Assembly (NCBI GenBank): GCA_044450345.1
Contig: JBIOIY010000009.1
Span: forward strand, 1 to 63,693
DNA: 63,693 nt
Origin: Thermodesulfovibrionales bacterium
Lineage (GTDB): Bacteria > Nitrospirota > Thermodesulfovibrionia > Thermodesulfovibrionales > UBA6898
Direction of reading: 5' to 3'
In this document: in pieces, positions 46,701 to 56,418 of the stretch
How positions within the stretch are numbered: the first letter of the stretch is position 1
How the letters are laid out: every line of letters begins with the position of its first letter
Translations under genes and position numbers: made by a program
The notes under the pieces: generated by a model
What the model was told of the DNA's origin: nothing
What the model saw: only the letters and a program-made list of their open reading frames with translations
Database searches by the model: none

Positions 46701-46727
46701 ATTTCGGGAAGTACAAAGATTAACGGA

Positions 46728-46761
46728 GGGTTTGCGGAGATTATCTGCAGACCCTTTTTTG
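46728..46761 (+). terminator. atp operon terminator
   Basis: GGGTTTGCGGA-GATTA-TCTGCAGACCC followed by a T run. Confidence 0.8.
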
Positions 46762-46799: not shown

Positions 46800-46918
46800 G
46801 TCATTCCCGCGTCCGCACACAGGCGGATCCGCTCTCCTCGGCGAGTCGCCCGTGGCGACCGGGGAGGAAAGGCGGGAATCCAGGAATGCACTGGATTCCG
46901 GGTCAAGCCCGGAATGAC
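46800..46918. repeat. GTCATTCC..GGAATGAC palindromic element with nested mini-hairpin insertions
   Basis: GTCATTCCCGCG[insert]AAGGCGGGAATCCAG..CTGGATTCCGGGTCAAGCCCGGAATGAC; a half copy GATTCCGGACAGGCCGGAATGAC lies at ~50617-50639. Confidence 0.8.
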
Positions 46919-47257
46919 AACGAATTATATATAACTTAGATGTACTGAGGTCTATGACCCAGTTACTTCATTATTCGATGCCCCCCTACCTTAGTAGGAT
47001 TGATATCTTTATCTAAAAACCGCACAGTATTCGGCGATAAGATAAATGAAGGTTCTCTAAAAAAAGAACGGTCTAACATTGTTACTGTTACGAGAACGTT
47101 AATATGCTTATAAGAGGCATTTATCTATGTTTTTTCTCTGGACAGTAGCGGTTTGAATAGAATATACTTGAAAAAATTAAAATTTGGCAGGACTGAAAAG
47201 ACAGCTTTAAAAATAGATTTAAAAAGTCTCGAAAATACTTTCGGAGGATTCGGAGAT

Positions 47258-49105
47258 ATGTCTTTCAGCAGGACCGCATTAATTTTGTTCTTGATCTTCA
47301 TCTTATCACCTTTCTCTACTCCCGCCTTTGCGATGTCGGAAGAAGAAAAGACTTTTCTGAGTATGTATTTTAAGGACGAGGAGCTGGAGATCATTTCTGC
47401 AACGAGGAGCCTTAAGTCTATAACTCGCATTGCGGAGAATATCGAGGTTGTGACAAAAGAAGATATTGAATTGATGAACGCGCATACGCTTGCGGACGTA
47501 CTGAATACGGTCAACGGTGTACAGGTTTTTCCCTTCGGAAACGCACCCGGAGACGCTGCGCAGGTATTCATCCAAGGTTCGGCATCAAAGCATGTTGCGG
47601 TGTTTGTCGACGGCGTTTCGATGAATACCTTAAGCGGCCTAACTGCCGATGTCGGCGCTATACCTGTCCAGTTTGTGGAAAAGATCGAGATCATCAAGGG
47701 ACCGGCCTCTTCGGCTTGGGGTTCGTCTTTGGGAGGCGTGATCAACATTATTACGAAGGCCGGCATGGCAGATAAAACAAAGGGGATGCTTTCTGCGTCA
47801 TACGGCGAACATAATACAGGTGATTTCAGGGCAGAGGCTTCGGGCGGAGAAGGGAAACTAGGGTATTATTTCACTGTTGGCCGTCTTCAGACAGATGGCT
47901 TCAGGCCTGGCAATGACTCTAACGGACATAACTTCTATACTAAATTGTCCTATGAAATTTCAAAGGATACTCAGCTACTGTTTACCACGTTTTACACAAG
48001 CATCGCACATCGGGAGCTCGAAATAGACCCCGACATATTTAGTGATAAGTTCAGGAATATGTTCATGACACTTGCGATGAATTCTTCATTGAGCAGAGAA
48101 CTGAACCTGCAGTTGTCCCTAAGGTATCATCAGGACATATTCGATTCTTTTACCGATGATACTCCGGATTTCTTTGATAAGGATGATACCTATGGCGGAA
48201 GCGCGAAGATGACGTGGCGGCATGAAAACCATGCTATTGTTGCAGGCCTGGATTATGATAATCAACGCCTGGCTTCGAGCGCCATCGGACAAGTACTGCG
48301 GTTTACTAGGTGGGCAGTCTATGCCAATGACACCATCACCCTCGGCAAATTCGCCGTGACGCCGGGCGTGCGATACGATTACACCGGCATTGCAGGTTAT
48401 TTCCTTAGTCCGAGTCTCGGCATAACGTATCAGGTCGCAGACAATGCCATTTTGAGGGCCTATGCAGCACGGGGGTTCAGCAGCATCGAACCCCAAATCT
48501 CGAGGGCGGACTTCGGTAGTTTCATCCATAATCCCGATATAAAGCCGGAGAAGGTGTGGTCTTTTCAACTCGGCGGAGAGGCTGGTCTTACAAAGTATCT
48601 CTGGCTGAAGGTCTCCGGGTTCAGGCATGAGATAAGGGACGCTGAACAGGACGTCGATCTACCGGGAGGGTTCTTTACAACGGTGAATGCGGCGCGGCAG
48701 AGGAGGCAGGGAGTGGAGGTCAGTATGAAGACGACGCCTATTTATAATTTCACGCTTTCCGCAGGAACAACGATAATTGACACAAAGGATCTAGATACCG
48801 GTGAGGATATAAAGACAGTTCCCACGAACACTTATGATGTTGCGCTGAAATACGACGATAAAAAGTCTTTTAGGGCCCTTCTGCAAGGTCATTTCATCTG
48901 GTGGAATATGGATGATTCGGGTAATGCTCAATACAACTCGGTAATTTGGGATCTCAATATGATAAAGAAGCTTCGCTCGGAGGGTAAAAGCACGTGGGAT
49001 ATTTTCGTCACCGCACACAACCTGTTCAATGGTTCGCAATATTGGCAACAGTATTATCAAAATGCCCGCAGATGGATAGAAGCAGGGGTAAGGCTTACAT
49101 TTTAG
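47258..49105 (+). CDS. TonB-dependent outer-membrane receptor
   Basis: Signal peptide, plug (VTKEDIE, IQG, VFVDGV, EKIEIIKGPASSAWGSSLGGVINIITK), barrel ending AHNLFN..GVRLTF (terminal Phe). Confidence 0.95.
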   Translation: MSFSRTALILFLIFILSPFSTPAFAMSEEEKTFLSMYFKDEELEIISATRSLKSITRIAENIEVVTKEDIELMNAHTLADVLNTVNGVQVFPFGNAPGDAAQVFIQGSASKHVAVFVDGVSMNTLSGLTADVGAIPVQFVEKIEIIKGPASSAWGSSLGGVINIITKAGMADKTKGMLSASYGEHNTGDFRAEASGGEGKLGYYFTVGRLQTDGFRPGNDSNGHNFYTKLSYEISKDTQLLFTTFYTSIAHRELEIDPDIFSDKFRNMFMTLAMNSSLSRELNLQLSLRYHQDIFDSFTDDTPDFFDKDDTYGGSAKMTWRHENHAIVAGLDYDNQRLASSAIGQVLRFTRWAVYANDTITLGKFAVTPGVRYDYTGIAGYFLSPSLGITYQVADNAILRAYAARGFSSIEPQISRADFGSFIHNPDIKPEKVWSFQLGGEAGLTKYLWLKVSGFRHEIRDAEQDVDLPGGFFTTVNAARQRRQGVEVSMKTTPIYNFTLSAGTTIIDTKDLDTGEDIKTVPTNTYDVALKYDDKKSFRALLQGHFIWWNMDDSGNAQYNSVIWDLNMIKKLRSEGKSTWDIFVTAHNLFNGSQYWQQYYQNARRWIEAGVRLTF

Positions 49106-49157
49106 CTCAAAAGACCTCTTTCAGAGGGATAGTCTCATGAGAAAAGGAGGGGTGAAG

Positions 49158-49256
49158 ATGAAAGGACGCATTGTAGTTTTGGACAAGGGAGTTGAAAAAA
49201 AGTCGATGGTGAATTCAGGTTGTTGCAAACCGGGAATCGCTCAAAACAAAGTCTGA
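49158..49256 (+). CDS. Putative RiPP precursor, 32 aa, geopeptide-like (MKGRIVVLDKGVEKKSMVNSGCCKPGIAQNKV)
   Basis: Hand-translated, absent from the ORF track; strong AAGGAGG RBS; CC motif; directly upstream of an rSAM/SPASM gene. Confidence 0.85.
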   Translation: MKGRIVVLDKGVEKKSMVNSGCCKPGIAQNKV

Positions 49257-49268
49257 GGGTATTACAGC

Positions 49269-49292
49269 GGAGGGAGGATGGCACCTCCCTCC
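49269..49292 (+). promoter_or_regulatory. Intercistronic hairpin between precursor and maturase
   Basis: GGAGGGAGG-ATGGCA-CCTCCCTCC, 9-bp stem ending 7 nt before the maturase ATG. Confidence 0.7.
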
Positions 49293-49299
49293 TTCTCAA

Positions 49300-50604
49300 A
49301 TGATTCTGTCAAGATACTGTAAAAGTTATCATTCTACGGAGGATTCCGATTCTGTTGTCCTATACTCCACGAAGAAGGCGTCGTCTATTCTTTTGCCTTT
49401 TTCGATGCTGGCCGACATAGAATCCGGAAATCTTATCGAAGAAGAAAAGGAAACACTGGAAGAACTCGGTTTTCTTGTAAAGGACCACGATACAGAGACC
49501 ACGGAAGTCAGCGGCCTTATCGGCGAACTGAATACCCTTAATAAGACTTTCCATGTCAAACCCGTCATGAACCTGGACTGCAATCTTGCGTGCAAGTATT
49601 GTTTCGAAGGCCAACGTAAGGGGAAATTTTATATGACACAGGAGACCGCCGACTCTTTCATTCATTTTGTGGGAGAGCGAATCTCGGCCGACCTCTTCGA
49701 AGAAGTCGGCATAACCTTTTACGGAGGGGAGCCCCTTCTCAGTCTTGACCTAATACTTTATATGTCAGGAAAACTGAAAAAACTAAGTGAAAGCAAGGGC
49801 CTCAGGTTCAGCTTTTCATTCATCACGAACGGCACTCTTTTCACCAGGAAAACTGTAGAAAAACTGATTCCTCTCGGGCTTAAGAGCGCTGCTATAACAA
49901 TCGACGGTCCCCGTGAAATCCATGACTTTTTCCGGCCCTTTAAGGGAGGGGCCGGGAGTTTCGATGCGATCTTTAGAAACGTTAAAGAAGTCTGCGGCAT
50001 TACTGACGTTCAGGTCGGAGGGAATTTTACAAGGGAAAGCTATAAGGAATACCCATTGCTTCTGGACATTATGCTGGCCAGTGGATTGACGCCGGATAAA
50101 ATCTCGCAGGTGAGGTTTGATCCTGTGATGAGGGAACGGGAGGGGATCGCGTCGCCAGGGTTTCATGAGGGATGCGTCTCGCTCAGCGAGCCCTGGCTCT
50201 TTGAAGCGATGGTCTTCCTGAGGGAAGAGATACTCAAGAGAGGTTTCAGCAGCGGCAAGATCATGCCGTCGACGTGCATGATGGAATACACTCATTCTTT
50301 GGTTTTAAACCATGATGGCAGTATATACAAATGTCCCGGCTTTATCGACAGGCCTGAATTTAAGGTGGGCGATCTAAGGAAAGGCATCGAGGACTATAAA
50401 CACAGTCACAACCTCGAAAGCTGGAAGAATGAAGAATGTCTTGAGTGCGCATATCTTCCTTTGTGTTTCGGTGGTTGCAGATACATGAAGTTTATCCGCG
50501 ACGGAAACATGAAAGGCGTGGATTGCAGAAAGCCTTATTATGACGCCACGCTCGAGGCCTTTGTGAAGCAGGATATCAAATATGGGCTTTGCAAGCGGGG
50601 ATAG
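49300..50604 (+). CDS. Radical SAM/SPASM peptide maturase (geopeptide-maturase-like)
   Basis: CNLACKYC (CxxxCxxC), FYGGEPL, ITNG, TIDG; SPASM Cys set C..CPG..CLECAYLPLCFGGC..C; ~80-aa N-terminal extension compatible with a RiPP recognition element. Confidence 0.93.
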   Translation: MILSRYCKSYHSTEDSDSVVLYSTKKASSILLPFSMLADIESGNLIEEEKETLEELGFLVKDHDTETTEVSGLIGELNTLNKTFHVKPVMNLDCNLACKYCFEGQRKGKFYMTQETADSFIHFVGERISADLFEEVGITFYGGEPLLSLDLILYMSGKLKKLSESKGLRFSFSFITNGTLFTRKTVEKLIPLGLKSAAITIDGPREIHDFFRPFKGGAGSFDAIFRNVKEVCGITDVQVGGNFTRESYKEYPLLLDIMLASGLTPDKISQVRFDPVMREREGIASPGFHEGCVSLSEPWLFEAMVFLREEILKRGFSSGKIMPSTCMMEYTHSLVLNHDGSIYKCPGFIDRPEFKVGDLRKGIEDYKHSHNLESWKNEECLECAYLPLCFGGCRYMKFIRDGNMKGVDCRKPYYDATLEAFVKQDIKYGLCKRG

Positions 50605-50811: not shown

Positions 50812-51714
50812 ATGGACAAGAGATCTTCGTTTTTTGTATTAATTACATTGCTCTTCCTCAATGGTTTCGCTGCCTCGTCCGGGGCGGGCGAGATCGTCGT
50901 AATAAAGAGCGCAGATATACAGCCCTATAACGATGCGTTGGAGGGGTTCCGCAGTTCCTTTGCCGATGACGTAACGGAGATAGTATTGTCCGAGACCGAG
51001 CCTGCCGAGGCCTTCAGAAGAGTCCACGATGCCCGTGCTGACGCGGTCTTTGCCATCGGTATGGACGCACTCAACCTCGCACGGTCGGTCGTGGACATCC
51101 CGGTCATATATGCCATGGTCCCACACCACCCTCCCTTGAGTTCCGGCCCGAAGCCCATTTCGGGTGTCAGCATGTATATCCCGCCGGACAGGTATATCGG
51201 GGCCATGCTCGATGTATTTTACGGCGCAAAGAGGATAGGCGTTATATACGACCCCAGAAACTCAGAGGCGTATATGAAAGAGGCGCTGCAATCTGCGCAG
51301 GGCAGGGGAGTGGAACTTGTCCTCAGAAAGGCGTCGAGGCCGTCCGACATCCCTGCTCTTGTCGACTCCTTGAAAGACAAAATAGACGTCTTCTGGATGC
51401 TTCCCGATACGACCGTGATCAACCCTGAGACAGTGAAATACCTTCTCCTTTTCTCATTCCAGAATAAGGTGCCCATATTTACATTTTCGAAAAAATATGT
51501 CGAGATGGGGTCCACTGCCGGGCTCTATACCGCGCCCTTCGACATCGGCGTGCAGGCGGGGGAGATAGCGCGGAAGCTGGTCACGGAGAAAAACCCGAAG
51601 ACGATCAGGACAGACGCGAGAAGGACGGTCCTTGCGGTCAACAGGAAGATAATCAAAAAATTCGGAATAAGGGTGAGGGACGATATCTTAAACAGGGCCG
51701 AAAATGTTGACTGA
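50812..51714 (+). CDS. Orphan periplasmic substrate-binding protein (ABC_sub_bind type)
   Basis: Signal peptide; KRIGVIYDP, DVFWMLPD, IGVQAGEIA, VNRK motifs; no permease or ATPase nearby; overlaps the kinase start. Confidence 0.85.
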   Translation: MDKRSSFFVLITLLFLNGFAASSGAGEIVVIKSADIQPYNDALEGFRSSFADDVTEIVLSETEPAEAFRRVHDARADAVFAIGMDALNLARSVVDIPVIYAMVPHHPPLSSGPKPISGVSMYIPPDRYIGAMLDVFYGAKRIGVIYDPRNSEAYMKEALQSAQGRGVELVLRKASRPSDIPALVDSLKDKIDVFWMLPDTTVINPETVKYLLLFSFQNKVPIFTFSKKYVEMGSTAGLYTAPFDIGVQAGEIARKLVTEKNPKTIRTDARRTVLAVNRKIIKKFGIRVRDDILNRAENVD

Positions 51715-53284
51715 AAGGACAAAGAAGAGTTTCAGTTTCAAGGTATTCAGGTCGTTTGCTGTTTCGATCTTCCTGGTCTTTGCAGGCTTCACAGCCTTTT
51801 TTATCTATTATGAAAACAGGACCGTCCGGAACGACCTGTACAAAGAAGGAAAGATGCTTGCCGACCTCCTCGCATACAACACCAGGACGTGGGTATTCGC
51901 CGAGAACAAGGACATGCTGAAGGACGCGGTCCAGGGGATAATGGTCCAGAAAAATGTACTCGCCGTAGCGATATATAACATGGAGAAGAAGGCGCTGCTG
52001 GTCGAGACGAGGAAGGCCGCGGGGCAGGGGGCCTGGAAGACTGCCCAGCCTGTATCCGAAGCGTTCGCGCTCGACCCGGGCGATAAGACATCCGGACCTG
52101 TGGAAAAAGAAGATACCATCGATTTTCTCGCCCCTGTCTATCTTGAGACCTATAGAAATACAGAGGAGGCGCTTTATTTTGACGTCTCCGCTCCGGTAAG
52201 CAATCAGAGCGTCATCGGCTATGTAAAGGTCATACTCGATAAGGGCGTACTCAAACGGGAGATGAGGGCCATTTTGGTCAGGAACGCCCTCATTGCGGTA
52301 GTTTTTCTCTTTGCGGGCAGCATTGCCATCTATATCGCCATCAAAAGGGTCACCCTGCCGCTCACGAGACTTGCCGTCTCGGTGAGATCTCTTGGGAAGG
52401 GGGAAACGATCGACAAAGTCCCGGTGGAGTCGATGGACGAGATAGGAAGACTGGCGGTAGATTTCAACACCATGTACGACGACCTGAAGAAGAGGGAAGA
52501 GGAAAAAGAGGCCCTCGAAGAGCGGCTGAGGCATGCCCAGAAGATGGAGGCGATTGGGACCCTCGCCCGTGGGATCGCTCACGACTTCAATAATATCCTC
52601 GCGACCCTGAGAGGCTCTATCTACCTCATGGAGAAAAAGCTCCAGAAGCAGGTCAATGTGAAGCAGTATACCGGTCAGGTGCATAGTTCGATCACAAAGG
52701 CCCAGAACCTGATACGGGGACTTCTTACATTCAGCAGGACACAGACGATCAGTTCACGTCCGATGGACGTAAATAATATTATCAAAAGGCTTCAGCCGAT
52801 GCTCGTCAATATCGCAGGAGAAGATATCCGCATAAACATTTCTCTTTTTGAGGACCCCTTGATGGTGATGACCGACAGCATGCAGATGGAGCAGATCCTG
52901 ATGAACCTCTGTTCTAACGCGCGGGATGCAATGCCCGACGGGGGCGTGATTTTCGTATCGACGAGGGCAGAGACCGTCAATGAGGGCAAGCAGACCCTCG
53001 CTCCCGGCGAATATGCCGTTATTTCGTTGGGCGATACAGGTCCGGGCATGGATGACAGGGTCAAGGAGAGGATCTTCGAGCCTTATTTCACTACAAAGGA
53101 TGTGGGAAAGGGAACGGGCCTCGGACTTTCGATCGTATACGGTATAATAGAGCGGCATAAAGGGCATATCGAGGTGCACACGAAGAAGGGAGAAGGAACG
53201 GAATTTAGGGTATACCTGCCTCTCCTCGATGCACAAGAGGGAGATGCGGAAGGCGCGGCAGAGGACACTGCGGCAGAGGTGTGA
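51704..53284 (+). CDS. HAMP-domain sensor histidine kinase
   Basis: Two TMs, periplasmic domain, HAMP (PLTRL..DEIGRLAVDFN), GIAHDFNN, NARDAM, GTGLGL. Confidence 0.95.
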   Translation: MLTERTKKSFSFKVFRSFAVSIFLVFAGFTAFFIYYENRTVRNDLYKEGKMLADLLAYNTRTWVFAENKDMLKDAVQGIMVQKNVLAVAIYNMEKKALLVETRKAAGQGAWKTAQPVSEAFALDPGDKTSGPVEKEDTIDFLAPVYLETYRNTEEALYFDVSAPVSNQSVIGYVKVILDKGVLKREMRAILVRNALIAVVFLFAGSIAIYIAIKRVTLPLTRLAVSVRSLGKGETIDKVPVESMDEIGRLAVDFNTMYDDLKKREEEKEALEERLRHAQKMEAIGTLARGIAHDFNNILATLRGSIYLMEKKLQKQVNVKQYTGQVHSSITKAQNLIRGLLTFSRTQTISSRPMDVNNIIKRLQPMLVNIAGEDIRINISLFEDPLMVMTDSMQMEQILMNLCSNARDAMPDGGVIFVSTRAETVNEGKQTLAPGEYAVISLGDTGPGMDDRVKERIFEPYFTTKDVGKGTGLGLSIVYGIIERHKGHIEVHTKKGEGTEFRVYLPLLDAQEGDAEGAAEDTAAEV

Positions 53285-53287
53285 TGA

Positions 53288-54631
53288 ATGGACAGAATAC
53301 TCGTCGTCGATGACGACAAGGACTTAAGAGGAATAGTCGGGGAGGTGCTGAAAGAGGAAGGCTTCGCGGTAACCGAGGCCGGCGACGGTATCGGCGCCGT
53401 CAAACTCTTCAGGAAGTCCCCCCCGGATGCGGTGCTGCTCGATCTGAACATGCCATATATGAACGGGATCGATGCCATGCACGAACTCAGAAAGATCGGC
53501 CCTGATGTGCCCATCATTATTCTGACCGCATACGGCGACATTCCCACGGCGGTGGATGCCATAAAGAATGGTGTCTATGATTTCATGATAAAGCCCCCTG
53601 AGTTCGACAGGCTTGTTTTTACCCTCCGGCGGGCGCTTGAAAAACGGCGGCTTGAGATTGAGGTCAAAAGGACCACCACCGCGCTTGAGTCGTCGCTCGA
53701 ACACCAGCTTGGCAGAAGCAGTGCAATGAAGACGGTCGTGAATCGGATCAAACAGGTGGCTCACACGAATTTTTCTGTCATCATCCAGGGGGAGACAGGC
53801 ACAGGGAAGTCGGTGGTGGCAGGCGCCATACAGAACCTGAGCGGGAGGCCCGATAGGCCTTTTGTGAGCGTAGACATAGGGCTGATCCCGGACCTCCTTG
53901 TAGAGAGCGAGCTGTTCGGGTATAAGAAAGGGGCCTTTACGGGCGCCGAGAGGGACAAGGCAGGCTATTTCGAGACCGCTCACAGGGGCACCATATTCAT
54001 AGACGAACTGGAAAACATGTCGCCCCATGTTCAGGGGAAACTCTTAAGCGTCATCGAGAGGAAAAAGATTTATCCTCTCGGAAGCACAAGCCCGGTGGAT
54101 GTGGATATCCGCATCATTGCGGCGACCAACAAGGACCTGAAAGAAAGCGTGGAGAGGAAGGCGTTCAGGGAGGACCTTTTTTACCGCCTGGGTGAATTCT
54201 TCATCACGCTGCCGCCCCTCAGAGACAGGGTTGAAGACATACCTTTTTTTGCGAGAAAATTCTCCTTTGAGGCCGGGACAGAACTCAATAAGCAGATCAA
54301 GGAGATTGACGGGAACGCCCTCGCGCTCCTTGTGAGGTATTCATGGCCCGGCAATTTGAGGGAGCTCAAGAACGTAATGAGAAGGGCGACCCTCCTTGCC
54401 GAAGACGATGTGATCGATCAGACATGCGTCGAGGCGTTGATCAGCAAACAGGGAAGCGAGAAAAGTGCGTGTCCGGTCGTGCCGCTGAAAGAGGCGGTCA
54501 GGGACCTCGAGAAGAGGATAATTATTCAGGCCCTTGTCAGGACGGAGGGGAACAAGACAAAGGCAGCGGAACTGCTCGATTTGAGCTACGCGACCCTTTT
54601 TGCGAAGATCAAGGAATACGGCATAAAGTAG
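53288..54631 (+). CDS. NtrC-family sigma-54-dependent response regulator
   Basis: REC domain (VVDDD, LLDLNMP), GETGTGKS, ESELFG..GAFTGA, FREDLFYRL, WPGNLREL, Fis HTH. Confidence 0.97.
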   Translation: MDRILVVDDDKDLRGIVGEVLKEEGFAVTEAGDGIGAVKLFRKSPPDAVLLDLNMPYMNGIDAMHELRKIGPDVPIIILTAYGDIPTAVDAIKNGVYDFMIKPPEFDRLVFTLRRALEKRRLEIEVKRTTTALESSLEHQLGRSSAMKTVVNRIKQVAHTNFSVIIQGETGTGKSVVAGAIQNLSGRPDRPFVSVDIGLIPDLLVESELFGYKKGAFTGAERDKAGYFETAHRGTIFIDELENMSPHVQGKLLSVIERKKIYPLGSTSPVDVDIRIIAATNKDLKESVERKAFREDLFYRLGEFFITLPPLRDRVEDIPFFARKFSFEAGTELNKQIKEIDGNALALLVRYSWPGNLRELKNVMRRATLLAEDDVIDQTCVEALISKQGSEKSACPVVPLKEAVRDLEKRIIIQALVRTEGNKTKAAELLDLSYATLFAKIKEYGIK

Positions 54632-54977: not shown

Positions 54978-54994
54978 CTGGCCTTTTCTTTGCA
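54978..54994 (+). promoter_or_regulatory. Putative sigma-54 promoter upstream of the LuxR-HTH gene
   Basis: CTGGCCTTTTCTTTGCA: TGGC and TTGCA with exact GG-N10-GC spacing. Confidence 0.6.
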
Positions 54995-55059: not shown

Positions 55060-55299
55060 ATGATTCGAAAAAAGAAGGGTACTGATATGGACACATCGCA
55101 ACTCCTTTCTCCGCGAGAACGAGAAGTTCTCATGTGGTTGAGATGCGGCAAGACATCATGGGCCATATCGCTGATACTTAGGATAAGCGAGAGGACGGTA
55201 AATTACCACGTCAACAATATCATGCGCAAGCTCGATGTCAGCAACAGGATGCAGGCGGTTTCCGTGGCCTACAATGGTGATATCGGCAGGGATGAATGA
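55060..55299 (+). CDS. Stand-alone LuxR-type helix-turn-helix protein
   Basis: LSPREREVLMW..GKTSWAIS.IL.ISERTVNYH..NIMRKL.VSNRMQAV; no N-terminal ligand or REC domain. Confidence 0.9.
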   Translation: MIRKKKGTDMDTSQLLSPREREVLMWLRCGKTSWAISLILRISERTVNYHVNNIMRKLDVSNRMQAVSVAYNGDIGRDE

Positions 55300-55353
55300 G
55301 GGGTCTCCGCGGTTTCGTATCGGATGTGCGTTCGAGGGGTCGGAGGTGAAATA

Positions 55354-56418
55354 GTGAACGATGAAGCGTTCAATGGCAGTAGTAGCGCATTAAGCCCGAA
55401 TTGCATGCCGGACAGAAAGGTGATCGATATACATGCGCACATGTTTGGCACCGGAGATGCCGTAAAGGGGATGTTTGTATCGCAGGAGTTTTTCTCCAGT
55501 CCTGCTTTCTCTTCCATGCTTATGTATCTCAATACCCCGCCCTCTGCGGCGACCGACGGAAAGATCAGGCAAGTCCTTCTTGAAGAGGTTGAAAGCTCCG
55601 GGAGTATAGATTATGCGGTTTTCCTTGCTATGGACGGCGTTTACAAAAACGGTAAATTCGCGGCATCTGAGACGCATCTTGTGGTCCCCAACGATTACAT
55701 AATCGATCTTTCAAGAATGAACAAGAGGGTGCTTTTCGGCGCATCGGTCCACCCCTACAGGGAGGTGACGGAGATGCTGGCTGCTGCGAAACGATGCATA
55801 GACGGGGGTGCAGCGCTCTTTATGTGGTCTCCCTCAGAACAGCAGATAAACCCCGAGGATGACAGGTGCATCCCGTTATATGTATGCCTGGCGAGAGAAG
55901 GCATTCCGCTGCTCGCGCACACGGGCGCCGAGTTTACGGCGCGCACAACCGAATTCAGGGCGGACACATGCGATGATCCGAGAAAGCTGAAGACAGCCCT
56001 CGACATAGGCGTCAAAGTGATTGCGTCGCACTGCGCGCTGCCATCCGGAGAGGACGTGATGCCGGGCTGCGGATATTGGGAGGTATTGCTGGATATGCTG
56101 AGGACTGCGGAAGAAAAAAAGTGGGACCTCTACGCCGACATATCGGCTTGTTGCATGCCCTCGAAGATAGGGTATCTCGAGAGGGTCAAACTGGAAATTG
56201 AAGAGGGAAGGATAAGTCCTAAACGATTCCTCTACGGAAGCGATTTTCCGATGCCTGCGGTGGATATCAATGATGTGAAAAAACCTCTCACTCCCAATGA
56301 GCTGATCGAGCATATGAGCGGTCAGGGCAACCATCTCGACAACTATTACAGGATACTGAAAGATTTCGGGATCCATGAGTCGATCTTTACGAATGCCTGC
56401 GATGTCTTGAGACTTTGA
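55354..56418 (+). CDS. Amidohydrolase family 2 metallo-hydrolase
   Basis: IDIHAH, ASVHPYR, HTGAE, ASHCA, ADIS, YGSDFP; GTG start after GGAGGTG. Confidence 0.88.
   Translation: MNDEAFNGSSSALSPNCMPDRKVIDIHAHMFGTGDAVKGMFVSQEFFSSPAFSSMLMYLNTPPSAATDGKIRQVLLEEVESSGSIDYAVFLAMDGVYKNGKFAASETHLVVPNDYIIDLSRMNKRVLFGASVHPYREVTEMLAAAKRCIDGGAALFMWSPSEQQINPEDDRCIPLYVCLAREGIPLLAHTGAEFTARTTEFRADTCDDPRKLKTALDIGVKVIASHCALPSGEDVMPGCGYWEVLLDMLRTAEEKKWDLYADISACCMPSKIGYLERVKLEIEEGRISPKRFLYGSDFPMPAVDINDVKKPLTPNELIEHMSGQGNHLDNYYRILKDFGIHESIFTNACDVLRL

Follow-up and report, generated by a model that had tools for sequence, protein, structure and literature searches.

A putative geopeptide-class precursor and its radical SAM/SPASM maturase encoded between a TonB-dependent receptor and a sensor module in a Thermodesulfovibrionales bacterium

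Introduction

Radical S-adenosylmethionine (SAM) enzymes of the PapB, CteB and QhpD families form thioethers that join cysteine to carbon, and antimicrobials are common among sactipeptide- and ranthipeptide-like products. Cofactors, too, can arise from a short precursor and one SPASM enzyme, as is the case for PqqA/PqqE and MftA/MftC. In methanobactin operons, the precursor gene mbnA, whose product has essential core cysteines, is found with the genes for the TonB-dependent transporter MbnT and the periplasmic binding protein MbnE; TonB-dependent receptors typically import scarce metal complexes. In the LuxP-LuxQ system, a periplasmic binding protein presents the signal to a membrane kinase. 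An uncharacterised cluster from Parabacteroides that encodes a radical SAM-modified, ribosomally synthesized and post-translationally modified peptide (RaS-RiPP) has a two-component system and a TonB-dependent receptor (PMC9389541). Here we describe a short gene for a Cys-Cys peptide, the maturase gene that follows it, and the receptor and sensor genes around them in a 63,693-nt stretch of DNA from a Thermodesulfovibrionales bacterium; this whole stretch is called the window.

Judged from sequence comparisons, the peptide gene (49158-49256) and the maturase gene (49300-50604) are almost certainly a genuine precursor-maturase pair of the geopeptide class. The first interpretation of the locus, given in a preliminary description, was supported in part: the family stood, and the dedicated TonB-dependent receptor and the binding-protein/kinase/regulator module, which are the most informative part of the locus, had been left out.

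Results

The precursor gene

The genome holding the window consists of 86 contigs (3.19 Mb, 91% complete). The precursor, maturase, receptor, sensor and regulator genes of the cassette, and the promoter-like sites and hairpins between them, lie on the forward strand. The precursor gene encodes a peptide of 32 aa, MKGRIVVLDKGVEKKSMVNSGCCKPGIAQNKV, and ends with a TGA stop codon at 49254-49256. The peptide is made up of the leader MKGRIVVLDKG, a 10-residue linker, the invariant pair Cys22-Cys23 and a polar tail of nine residues. A Shine-Dalgarno sequence, AAGGAGG (49144-49150), is separated by 7 nt (GGTGAAG) from the ATG at 49158, and GGAGG is kept at the same position in the paralogues. The preliminary description had claimed such an AAGGAGG-N7-ATG open reading frame (ORF) of 32 aa, which was confirmed with an identical translation; it had also called the ORF unannotated and missed by the ORF track, and this is consistent with the absence of the exact peptide from a collection of 15 billion proteins. 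A protein atlas gave no usable match to the precursor. A 39-aa version from the in-frame ATG at 49137 was rejected, and the start at 49158 is supported, because 30 aligned homologues begin two to four residues ahead of the invariant Ile.

A profile of 26 precursors from other genomes, with the four precursors of this genome excluded, was run over the 88,747 stop-to-stop frames of at least 20 aa in the genome. Exactly four frames were matched, with E-values of 1e-14 to 2.1e-10, and the next best frame had an E-value of 0.92. The window ORF scored 42.4 bits (E 2.1e-10), and all four matched frames were located directly upstream of the four TIGR04280 maturase genes of the genome. When the paralogues were compared with the foreign locus L021 (L-numbers are locus labels), leader codons 1-12 had 6-7 synonymous and 0-1 non-synonymous differences, and core codons 21-32 had 1-2 and 3-5, respectively. 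These differences indicate a leader under purifying selection and a variable core tail. Contigs X1 and X7, which come from two other studies, cover the ORF with one synonymous change (Gly3), one Ser20Ala replacement and no insertion or deletion.

That the ORF is a chance reading frame and no gene at all is extremely improbable. Frames of 32 codons do often arise by chance, since 120 ORFs of at least 25 aa are present within 12 kb, and the peptide falls under the cut-off of the TIGR04229 model, but such an origin is contradicted by the specificity of the profile, by the selection on the leader, by the Cys-Cys ORFs at homologous loci and by the invariant residues.

Family assignment and conservation of the precursor

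The sole NCBIfam match of the peptide was TIGR04229 "geopeptide" (18.7 bits, E 1.1e-3), positions 1-18 of the model aligning to IVVL...GCC of the peptide; the curated cut-off of 30 bits was not reached. Among the 30 aligned precursors, which are of the Nitrospirota type, none came near this cut-off, and the best E-value was 4.2e-4. The gene was left unannotated because TIGR04229, even at E ≤ 1, misses most such precursors; NCBI annotation models name the geopeptide family, and the curated precursor model misses the Nitrospirota versions. The preliminary description had named the TIGRFAM geopeptide family for both partners, and this held for the enzyme, which is well over the cut-off of its model (see below), and is plausible and sub-threshold for the peptide. 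Its further statement that no characterised product was known to it agrees with the literature on geopeptide and TIGR04280, in which no study of the product or its role was found.

Residues I5, G11, C22 and C23 were invariant in 30 of 30 aligned precursors, the spacing from Gly to Cys-Cys was 10 in most of them, and the leader followed the pattern RIVVLxKG. The Cys-Cys pair was present in all 17 and 28 foreign precursors found in the two surveys described below; that it is the defining trait of the family is our reading of the TIGR04229 model alignment. No conserved acceptor residue was seen after Cys-Cys in the 30 aligned precursors. The tails after Cys-Cys are of a polar class (the window, L014, L019 and others) or of a hydrophobic CCxGxxxPxxx class (the other three copies of this genome), and a third group of precursors has a long Lys/Ala-rich repeat within the leader.

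In the latter group (L064, L067, L068, L071, L075 and L081), the repeat (KKKAxKKKAx...) lies between the leader and the Cys-Cys core and the total length is 50-62 aa; the maturases and the receptors of the group each form one strongly supported clade (Shimodaira-Hasegawa-like approximate likelihood ratio test (SH-aLRT) 99), and such a histone-H1-like polycationic leader is unusual for a ribosomally synthesized and post-translationally modified peptide (RiPP). At L062:1052-1430, two tandem near-identical precursor genes (...EKIVVLDAGREGSSWMSCCWGAFAFYRR) were found before one maturase gene.

Cys-Cys ORFs at homologous loci

When species-representative genomes were searched with the four maturases, 49 loci were obtained, of which 21 were examined. 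Nineteen of the 21 were close relatives (45-62% identical), hosted by Nitrospirota (including Ca. Sulfobium and Thermodesulfovibrionia), Geobacteraceae, Desulfobacteraceae and Rokubacteria. A short Cys-Cys ORF was found upstream of the maturase gene in 17 of the 17 close loci having upstream DNA, the remaining two lacking upstream DNA, and no Cys-Cys ORF was found at the two examined loci with 29% identity. Within a sample of the phylum, 44 of 401 genomes had a maturase over the TIGR04280 cut-off, and the four copies of this genome were the highest number among the genomes listed. A Cys-Cys ORF was present at 28 of the 29 loci fetched from this sample; at L080 none was seen within 565 nt. The similar short ORFs upstream of homologous maturases that the preliminary description had looked to were thus found in both surveys. 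From the precursor stop codon to the maturase ATG there are 43 nt in the window, and 46-136 nt are usual among the relatives.

The maturase

The gene at 49300-50604 encodes a radical SAM/SPASM maturase of 434 aa, residues 1-80 of which form a putative N-terminal leader-binding domain. It matched TIGR04280 "geopeptide radical SAM maturase" with 578.7 bits (E 7.6e-174, positions 1-427 of the 428 of the model), above the cut-off of 400. Further NCBIfam matches were TIGR04463, CefB, PapB, the SCIFF maturase, QhpD and anSME, with 167.7, 154.6, 137.5, 97.9, 93.5 and 88.7 bits, respectively. The CX3CX2C radical SAM motif (C94, C98, C101; PF04055, 55.1 bits) was invariant in 44 of 44 maturases, and so were the seven cysteines of the SPASM domain (C326-X13-G-X4-C345, C380-X2-C383-X5-C389-X3-C393 and C409; TIGR04085, 59.7 bits); C292 was present in 38 of 44.

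The AlphaFold2 (AF2) model of the maturase had a predicted local distance difference test (pLDDT) score of 84.4 and a predicted template modelling (pTM) score of 0.83, residues 1-80 being folded as three strands plus helices. The best fold match in the PDB was CteB (5why), which was aligned over the full length, N-terminal domain included (E 2.4e-20, TM score 0.68, approximately 20% identity), and CteB was also the closest solved structure by sequence (E 2.3e-19). The fold matches that came after it were anSME, in second place, TigE, ChlB and SuiB, with PqqE also among the matches. A Pfam scan of the maturase gave no family for the leader-binding domain at E ≤ 0.01; from the model, the N-terminal domain is predicted to be a leader-recognition domain.

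Predicted docking of the leader and likely chemistry

Prediction of the precursor-maturase complex, for which our own alignments and three controls were used, gave a score of 0.87, compared to 0.01 for the best of the three controls. Of 157 solved complexes, 116 attained the mark of 0.87, as did 2 of 215 mismatched pairs; these counts are only approximate here because our own alignments were used. The runs shared at least 56% of their contacts, with a partner pLDDT of at least 62. In the model, precursor residues 5-12 were placed on enzyme residues 26-33 and 48-56, and precursor residues 14-22 near residues 320-333, 345-346 and 393, beside the auxiliary-cluster cysteines Cys326, Cys345 and Cys393. 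The prediction supports docking of the leader as a beta-strand on the N-terminal domain of the maturase.

Thioether chemistry joining cysteine to carbon, of the sacti- or ranthi-type that the preliminary description had also proposed, is our best guess for the modification, and we would put it no higher than an even chance. It is suggested because the nearest named families (PapB, SCIFF/CteB and QhpD) make such links, CteB being the best fold match as well, and the predicted pose, with residues up to Cys22 near the auxiliary-cluster cysteines, also underlies it. The sacti- and ranthi-types could not be told apart because of the lack of a conserved acceptor residue after Cys-Cys.

The TonB-dependent receptor and its upstream region

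Upstream of the precursor gene, a TonB-dependent receptor of BtuB-like size is encoded at 47258-49105; its ORF opens with a TTG at 47153, and the likely start is the ATG at 47258, followed by a signal peptide. The receptor matched PF00593 with 117.9 bits and the Plug domain PF07715 with 74.8 bits, and the nearest solved plug was that of BtuB (E 5e-21), those of Cir and FepA also being close. A receptor of the same clade adjoined the precursor gene in 4 of 4 cassettes of this genome and in all 16 relatives' loci for which upstream DNA was available. In the phylum sample it did so in 27 of 29 loci, the other two having too little upstream DNA to judge. The receptor tree reproduced most of the strongly supported clades of the maturase tree, which indicates that the two genes have travelled together.

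This association bears on whether the product stays in the cell. It could be a cofactor or a regulator, like the products of the pyrroloquinoline quinone (PQQ) or mycofactocin precursors, in which case the receptor and sensor genes would be functionally unrelated neighbours; the window cassette is without an exporter or signal sequence, and PqqE is among the fold matches of the maturase. Nevertheless, the adjacency of the receptor across two phyla and the similarity of the trees would be hard to explain without a shared function, and the tailoring enzymes that cofactor pathways need are absent from the cassette, so that an intracellular product is considered very unlikely. From the gene context, an extracellular product that is taken up by the receptor of the cassette is favoured, with some reserve.

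A sigma-70-type promoter-like site, TGGACA-N18-TATACT (47139-47168, 10 of 12 matches), was found upstream of the receptor gene; the orthologous loci L014 and L019 retain this block, and L018 and L013 retain it in part. The atpC terminator (46725-46757) separates the ATP synthase operon from this site. The stretch between the terminator and the receptor promoter contains, at 46800-46915, one copy of a dispersed repeat in which palindromes are nested, and the 11-mer GTCATTCCCGC of this repeat has 39 copies in the 3.19-Mb genome.

Plug domains were found in this genome only at the four cassettes. TonB_C was not found in this 91% complete assembly, and its only ExbB/ExbD/TonB_2 genes are those of a TolQ-TolR-TolA-TolB-Pal-CpoB cluster (C14:31001-39500, L103). 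In contrast, 15 of 15 other searched genomes of the family have TonB_C, with two to four matches each; in several of these genomes, TonB_C and a Plug-domain match share a contig and are 2-3 kb apart. The missing TonB gene, or receptor-TonB locus, is therefore probably an assembly gap, and the idea that the organism has only the cassette receptors and no TonB was rejected. A link between receptor and maturase by phylogenetic profile was also rejected: receptors are not confined to the cassette, because Plug domains occur in 99 of 121 genomes of the order, compared to the maturase in 44 of the 401 genomes of the phylum sample.

The downstream sensor module and its putative output

Downstream of the maturase gene, a PF04392 periplasmic binding protein with a signal peptide is encoded at 50812-51714 (94.5 bits; nearest solved structure 3lkv, E 2.7e-18). 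A PF04392 gene was directly downstream of the maturase gene in 20 of 29 loci, and each cassette of this genome has one paralogue. No gene for the permease or ATPase of an ATP-binding cassette (ABC) transporter was found in any cassette examined, the window's included. The binding protein gene is followed by that of a sensor histidine kinase (51704-53284; Pfam domains sCache_4, HAMP, HisKA and HATPase_c), an order in which the kinase came immediately after the binding protein in 11 of 14 fetched downstream regions, and then by that of a sigma-54-dependent response regulator (53288-54631) with a receiver, an AAA+ domain (PF00158, 208.6 bits) and a Fis-type helix-turn-helix (HTH). The type of regulator differed among cassettes, being of the sigma-54 type, of the NarL/GerE type or a hybrid kinase.

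A sigma-54-like -24/-12 element, TGGCCTTTTCTTTGCA, was matched at 54979-54994. All five cassettes that encode a sigma-54 regulator (the window, L012, L014, L018 and L091) have such an element 100-450 nt past the regulator gene; the background rate was 0.026 per 250 nt on one strand. In the window the element precedes the gene for a LuxR/GerE-type HTH protein of 79 aa (55060-55299; PF00196, 77 bits), which is the probable output gene of the sigma-54 regulator. The same kind of small LuxR-type gene follows the element in L014 and L018 (translations judged by eye); in L012 the element is followed by a LuxR protein with an autoinducer-binding domain (Pfam), and in L091 by a single-domain response regulator. 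A PF04909 amidohydrolase gene comes after the small LuxR-type gene in the window (55324-56418) and likewise in the orthologous L014.

No sigma-54 promoter was found before the receptor or precursor gene of the window at up to 2 mismatches or a score of at least 9/12. Among 38 cassettes, a sigma-54 motif within 250 nt upstream of the precursor gene was seen in two, and only that of L063 was strong; a general sigma-54 autoinduction loop, which had been considered, was thus not supported. The near-consensus promoter of L063, TGGCACAATTGTTGCA, is on the reverse strand at L063:3031-3046, 96 nt upstream of the precursor gene, and another, TGGCACGCCGATTGCT, is found near position 1594 of L011, approximately 300 nt upstream of the receptor gene. 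Some cassettes, unlike that of the window, may be driven by sigma-54.

The receptor and sensor genes could also be read as those of a metallophore. The Cys-Cys peptide, modified or not, would bind a thiophilic metal outside the cell, the receptor would import the complex, the binding protein would take it over, and the kinase and regulator would merely report its arrival. Two adjacent cysteines are all that is invariant in the core, the plug has those of BtuB, Cir and FepA as its nearest matches, all four receptors found in the assembly sit in these cassettes, the carriers, judged from record names, are anaerobes of sulfidic or metal-reducing habitats, and the genes for the precursor, the receptor and the periplasmic binding protein are arranged much as in the methanobactin operon. 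However, the location of all receptors in the cassettes counts for little, as the relatives have a receptor-TonB locus that is absent from this incomplete assembly, and thioether formation, as in the relatives of the enzyme, would use up the best metal ligands. An inner-membrane importer is in no cassette examined, and the visible regulatory output is a LuxR-type regulator or a single-domain response regulator and no transporter. The hypervariable core tails, with their polar and hydrophobic classes, would suit specificity better than a shared chelating scaffold. A metallophore is the main alternative, and it seems unlikely. That the product is a signal rather than a carrier of a nutrient is a tentative proposal, a little short of an even chance.

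Paralogues and two cassette lineages

The four TIGR04280 maturases of the genome scored 578-617 bits, the three paralogues having 603-617. Before each of them is an ORF of 32 codons that has a GGAGG site and encodes the leader MK..IVVL.KG and Cys-Cys at residues 22-23. The window maturase was 51-52% identical to the other three and grouped with the polar-core cassettes of other genomes. The other three were 89-90% identical to each other and formed a clade with L021 (SH-aLRT 100). In this hydrophobic-class lineage, the binding protein gene is divergently upstream, and a major facilitator superfamily (MFS) gene starts right after the maturase gene. The MFS gene (motif GGYSDRLGRK) was found after the three hydrophobic-class maturases of this genome (C57:19188-19384, C7:1-197 and C67:1-433) in near-identical copies, inside which all three contigs end, and L021, L060, L101 and L102 have the same gene after that of the maturase. 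Its product may be the exporter of that lineage; the window cassette is without one. At C57:15938-16245, the Plug domain of the receptor is split across two reading frames, by a frameshift or an assembly error.

The MFS gene could act as an exporter or as an immunity pump, and either role would fit an antimicrobial, bacteriocin-like RiPP, whose linked receptor would be the gate of entry or a part of self-protection and sensing. Such families typically combine a conserved leader and a hypervariable core, as seen here. Even so, the window cassette lacks an immunity gene, a peptidase-domain ABC exporter and a leader peptidase, it would be strange for a producer to maintain an importer dedicated to its own toxin, and the constant partners of the pair, the binding protein and the kinase, are parts for sensing. 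We regard a toxin as highly improbable, and a product that is released and sensed through the receptor is the reading followed below.

Hairpins around the precursor gene

A 9-bp G+C-rich hairpin (GGAGGGAGG / CCUCCCUCC, 49269-49292) with a weak U tract lies between the precursor and maturase genes. The folded stretch 49254-49310 had -21.5 kcal/mol (z -1.8), and at the same place the three paralogues and L021 have a G-rich stem with a T run after it, which is the canonical shape of a terminator. The hairpin is likely an attenuator, and its position 3' of the peptide gene would probably result in more peptide than enzyme transcript.

A short hairpin, CCUCU-UUC-AGAGG (49115-49127), is located between the receptor stop codon and the ribosome-binding site of the precursor gene; the paralogues and L021 have CCTCCATTGGAGG at this place, and the region folded no better than shuffled sequences (z 0.17). 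The CCUCU or CCUCC of this upstream hairpin (window 49115-49150; L001:1296-1340 and the paralogues) could instead pair with the GGAGG of the precursor gene. In the minimum-energy fold of this region it does so in the window, and no compensatory changes were seen.

Discussion

The observations can be brought together in a model in which the cassette makes a peptide signal of its own whose import across the outer membrane is an active step; taken as a whole, we consider this explanation about evenly balanced between right and wrong. The conserved leader RIVVLxKG would dock as a beta-strand on the N-terminal recognition domain of the maturase, and the fixed 10-residue linker would place the invariant Cys-Cys at the SPASM auxiliary cluster and the SAM site. 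There, by analogy with the relatives of the enzyme, one or both cysteine sulfurs would be joined to the carbon of a nearby residue as a thioether. The gene context suggests that the product would then be exported from the cell, would re-enter the periplasm through the cassette's own TonB-dependent receptor, and would be bound there by the transporter-less PF04392 protein. The latter would signal via the Cache/HAMP kinase to the sigma-54 regulator, which would act on the sigma-54-like promoter before the small LuxR-type regulator gene.

Several points weigh against this model. The peptide scores below the curated TIGR04229 cut-off, and only 10 of 30 precursors match that model at E ≤ 1. The docking score may reflect likeness to related enzyme-peptide complexes, because such complexes have been solved (CteB 5wgg, SuiB 5v1t and ChlB 9gm3), rather than a property of this pair. 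A thioether is not demanded by the sequences, in which no acceptor is conserved after Cys-Cys, and other SPASM chemistry is possible, for example the oxidation of cysteine as in anSME, the second-best fold match. Neither an exporter nor a leader peptidase is encoded in the window cassette, and a cleavage motif is not conserved in the precursors. Two free thiols together with a TonB-dependent receptor would also fit a metal carrier. No TonB gene is present in this assembly, probably owing to the gap described above, and an autoinduction loop is not evident, as no sigma-54 promoter precedes the receptor or precursor gene of the window.

The constant link of the pair to a dedicated outer-membrane importer, usually with the binding-protein/kinase pair, points to a peptide acting outside the cytoplasm of Gram-negative-type anaerobes. 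Geopeptide would then serve either as a metal carrier of the thiol/thioether kind or in a new type of peptide signalling whose import step depends on energy. More broadly, and with rather limited confidence, we propose that diderm anaerobes (Nitrospirota, Geobacteraceae, Desulfobacteraceae and others) use radical SAM-crosslinked Cys-Cys peptides as private cell-to-cell signals. Each peptide would have its own TonB-dependent receptor, because such peptides would be too large for porins, and an orphan PF04392 protein that presents it to the kinase, with several orthogonal channels per genome. If this is true, the four cassettes found here, which belong to two ancient lineages, would be orthogonal channels with diversifying core tails.

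Among the known systems, the locus is closest in name to the NCBIfam geopeptide system (TIGR04229 and TIGR04280, "hypothetical equivalog"), with which it shares a maturase that passes the cut-off and a short peptide gene directly upstream on the same strand. It differs in that the peptide of the window is sub-threshold and the host is a Nitrospirota-type anaerobe and not Geobacter. The CteB/CteA (SCIFF) and PapB/PapA ranthipeptide systems have maturases with the same arrangement of an N-terminal leader-binding domain, a radical SAM core and a 7-Cys SPASM domain. Their substrates also bear cysteine, the predicted pose of the leader agrees, and CteB is the best match among solved structures in both sequence and fold. 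In contrast to these systems, the identity is only approximately 20%, and the core of the window peptide has two adjacent cysteines and no conserved Thr, Asp or Glu acceptor. The SCIFF and Pap loci are not known to have the receptor and sensor genes found here.

In methanobactin operons, as in the window, the gene for a RiPP precursor with cysteine in its core goes together with those for a dedicated TonB-dependent receptor and a periplasmic binding protein. However, the sole enzyme encoded between the receptor and binding protein genes of the window is of the radical SAM/SPASM type, with no MbnB/MbnC-type enzymes beside the precursor gene, and the cassette has neither an exporter of the multidrug and toxic compound extrusion (MATE) type nor a sigma/anti-sigma pair; its binding protein is a PF04392 protein, followed by a kinase. 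The LuxP-LuxQ system resembles the locus in that a periplasmic binding protein without a transporter is encoded beside a sensor kinase. It differs in that the presumed ligand here would be a ribosomal peptide needing a TonB-dependent receptor, and in that the families are PF04392 and a Cache/HAMP kinase. Agr/Com-like peptide quorum sensing of the Gram-positive type is unlike the window cassette, from which AgrB or a peptidase-domain ABC exporter is absent, an MFS gene being found only in the other lineage. The Parabacteroides RaS-RiPP cluster also combines a radical SAM precursor and enzyme with a TonB-dependent receptor and a two-component system (PMC9389541). It belongs to a different family, and its 61-mer precursor, peptidase-domain ABC transporter and nucleotidyltransferases set it apart from the cassette of the window (PMC9389541).

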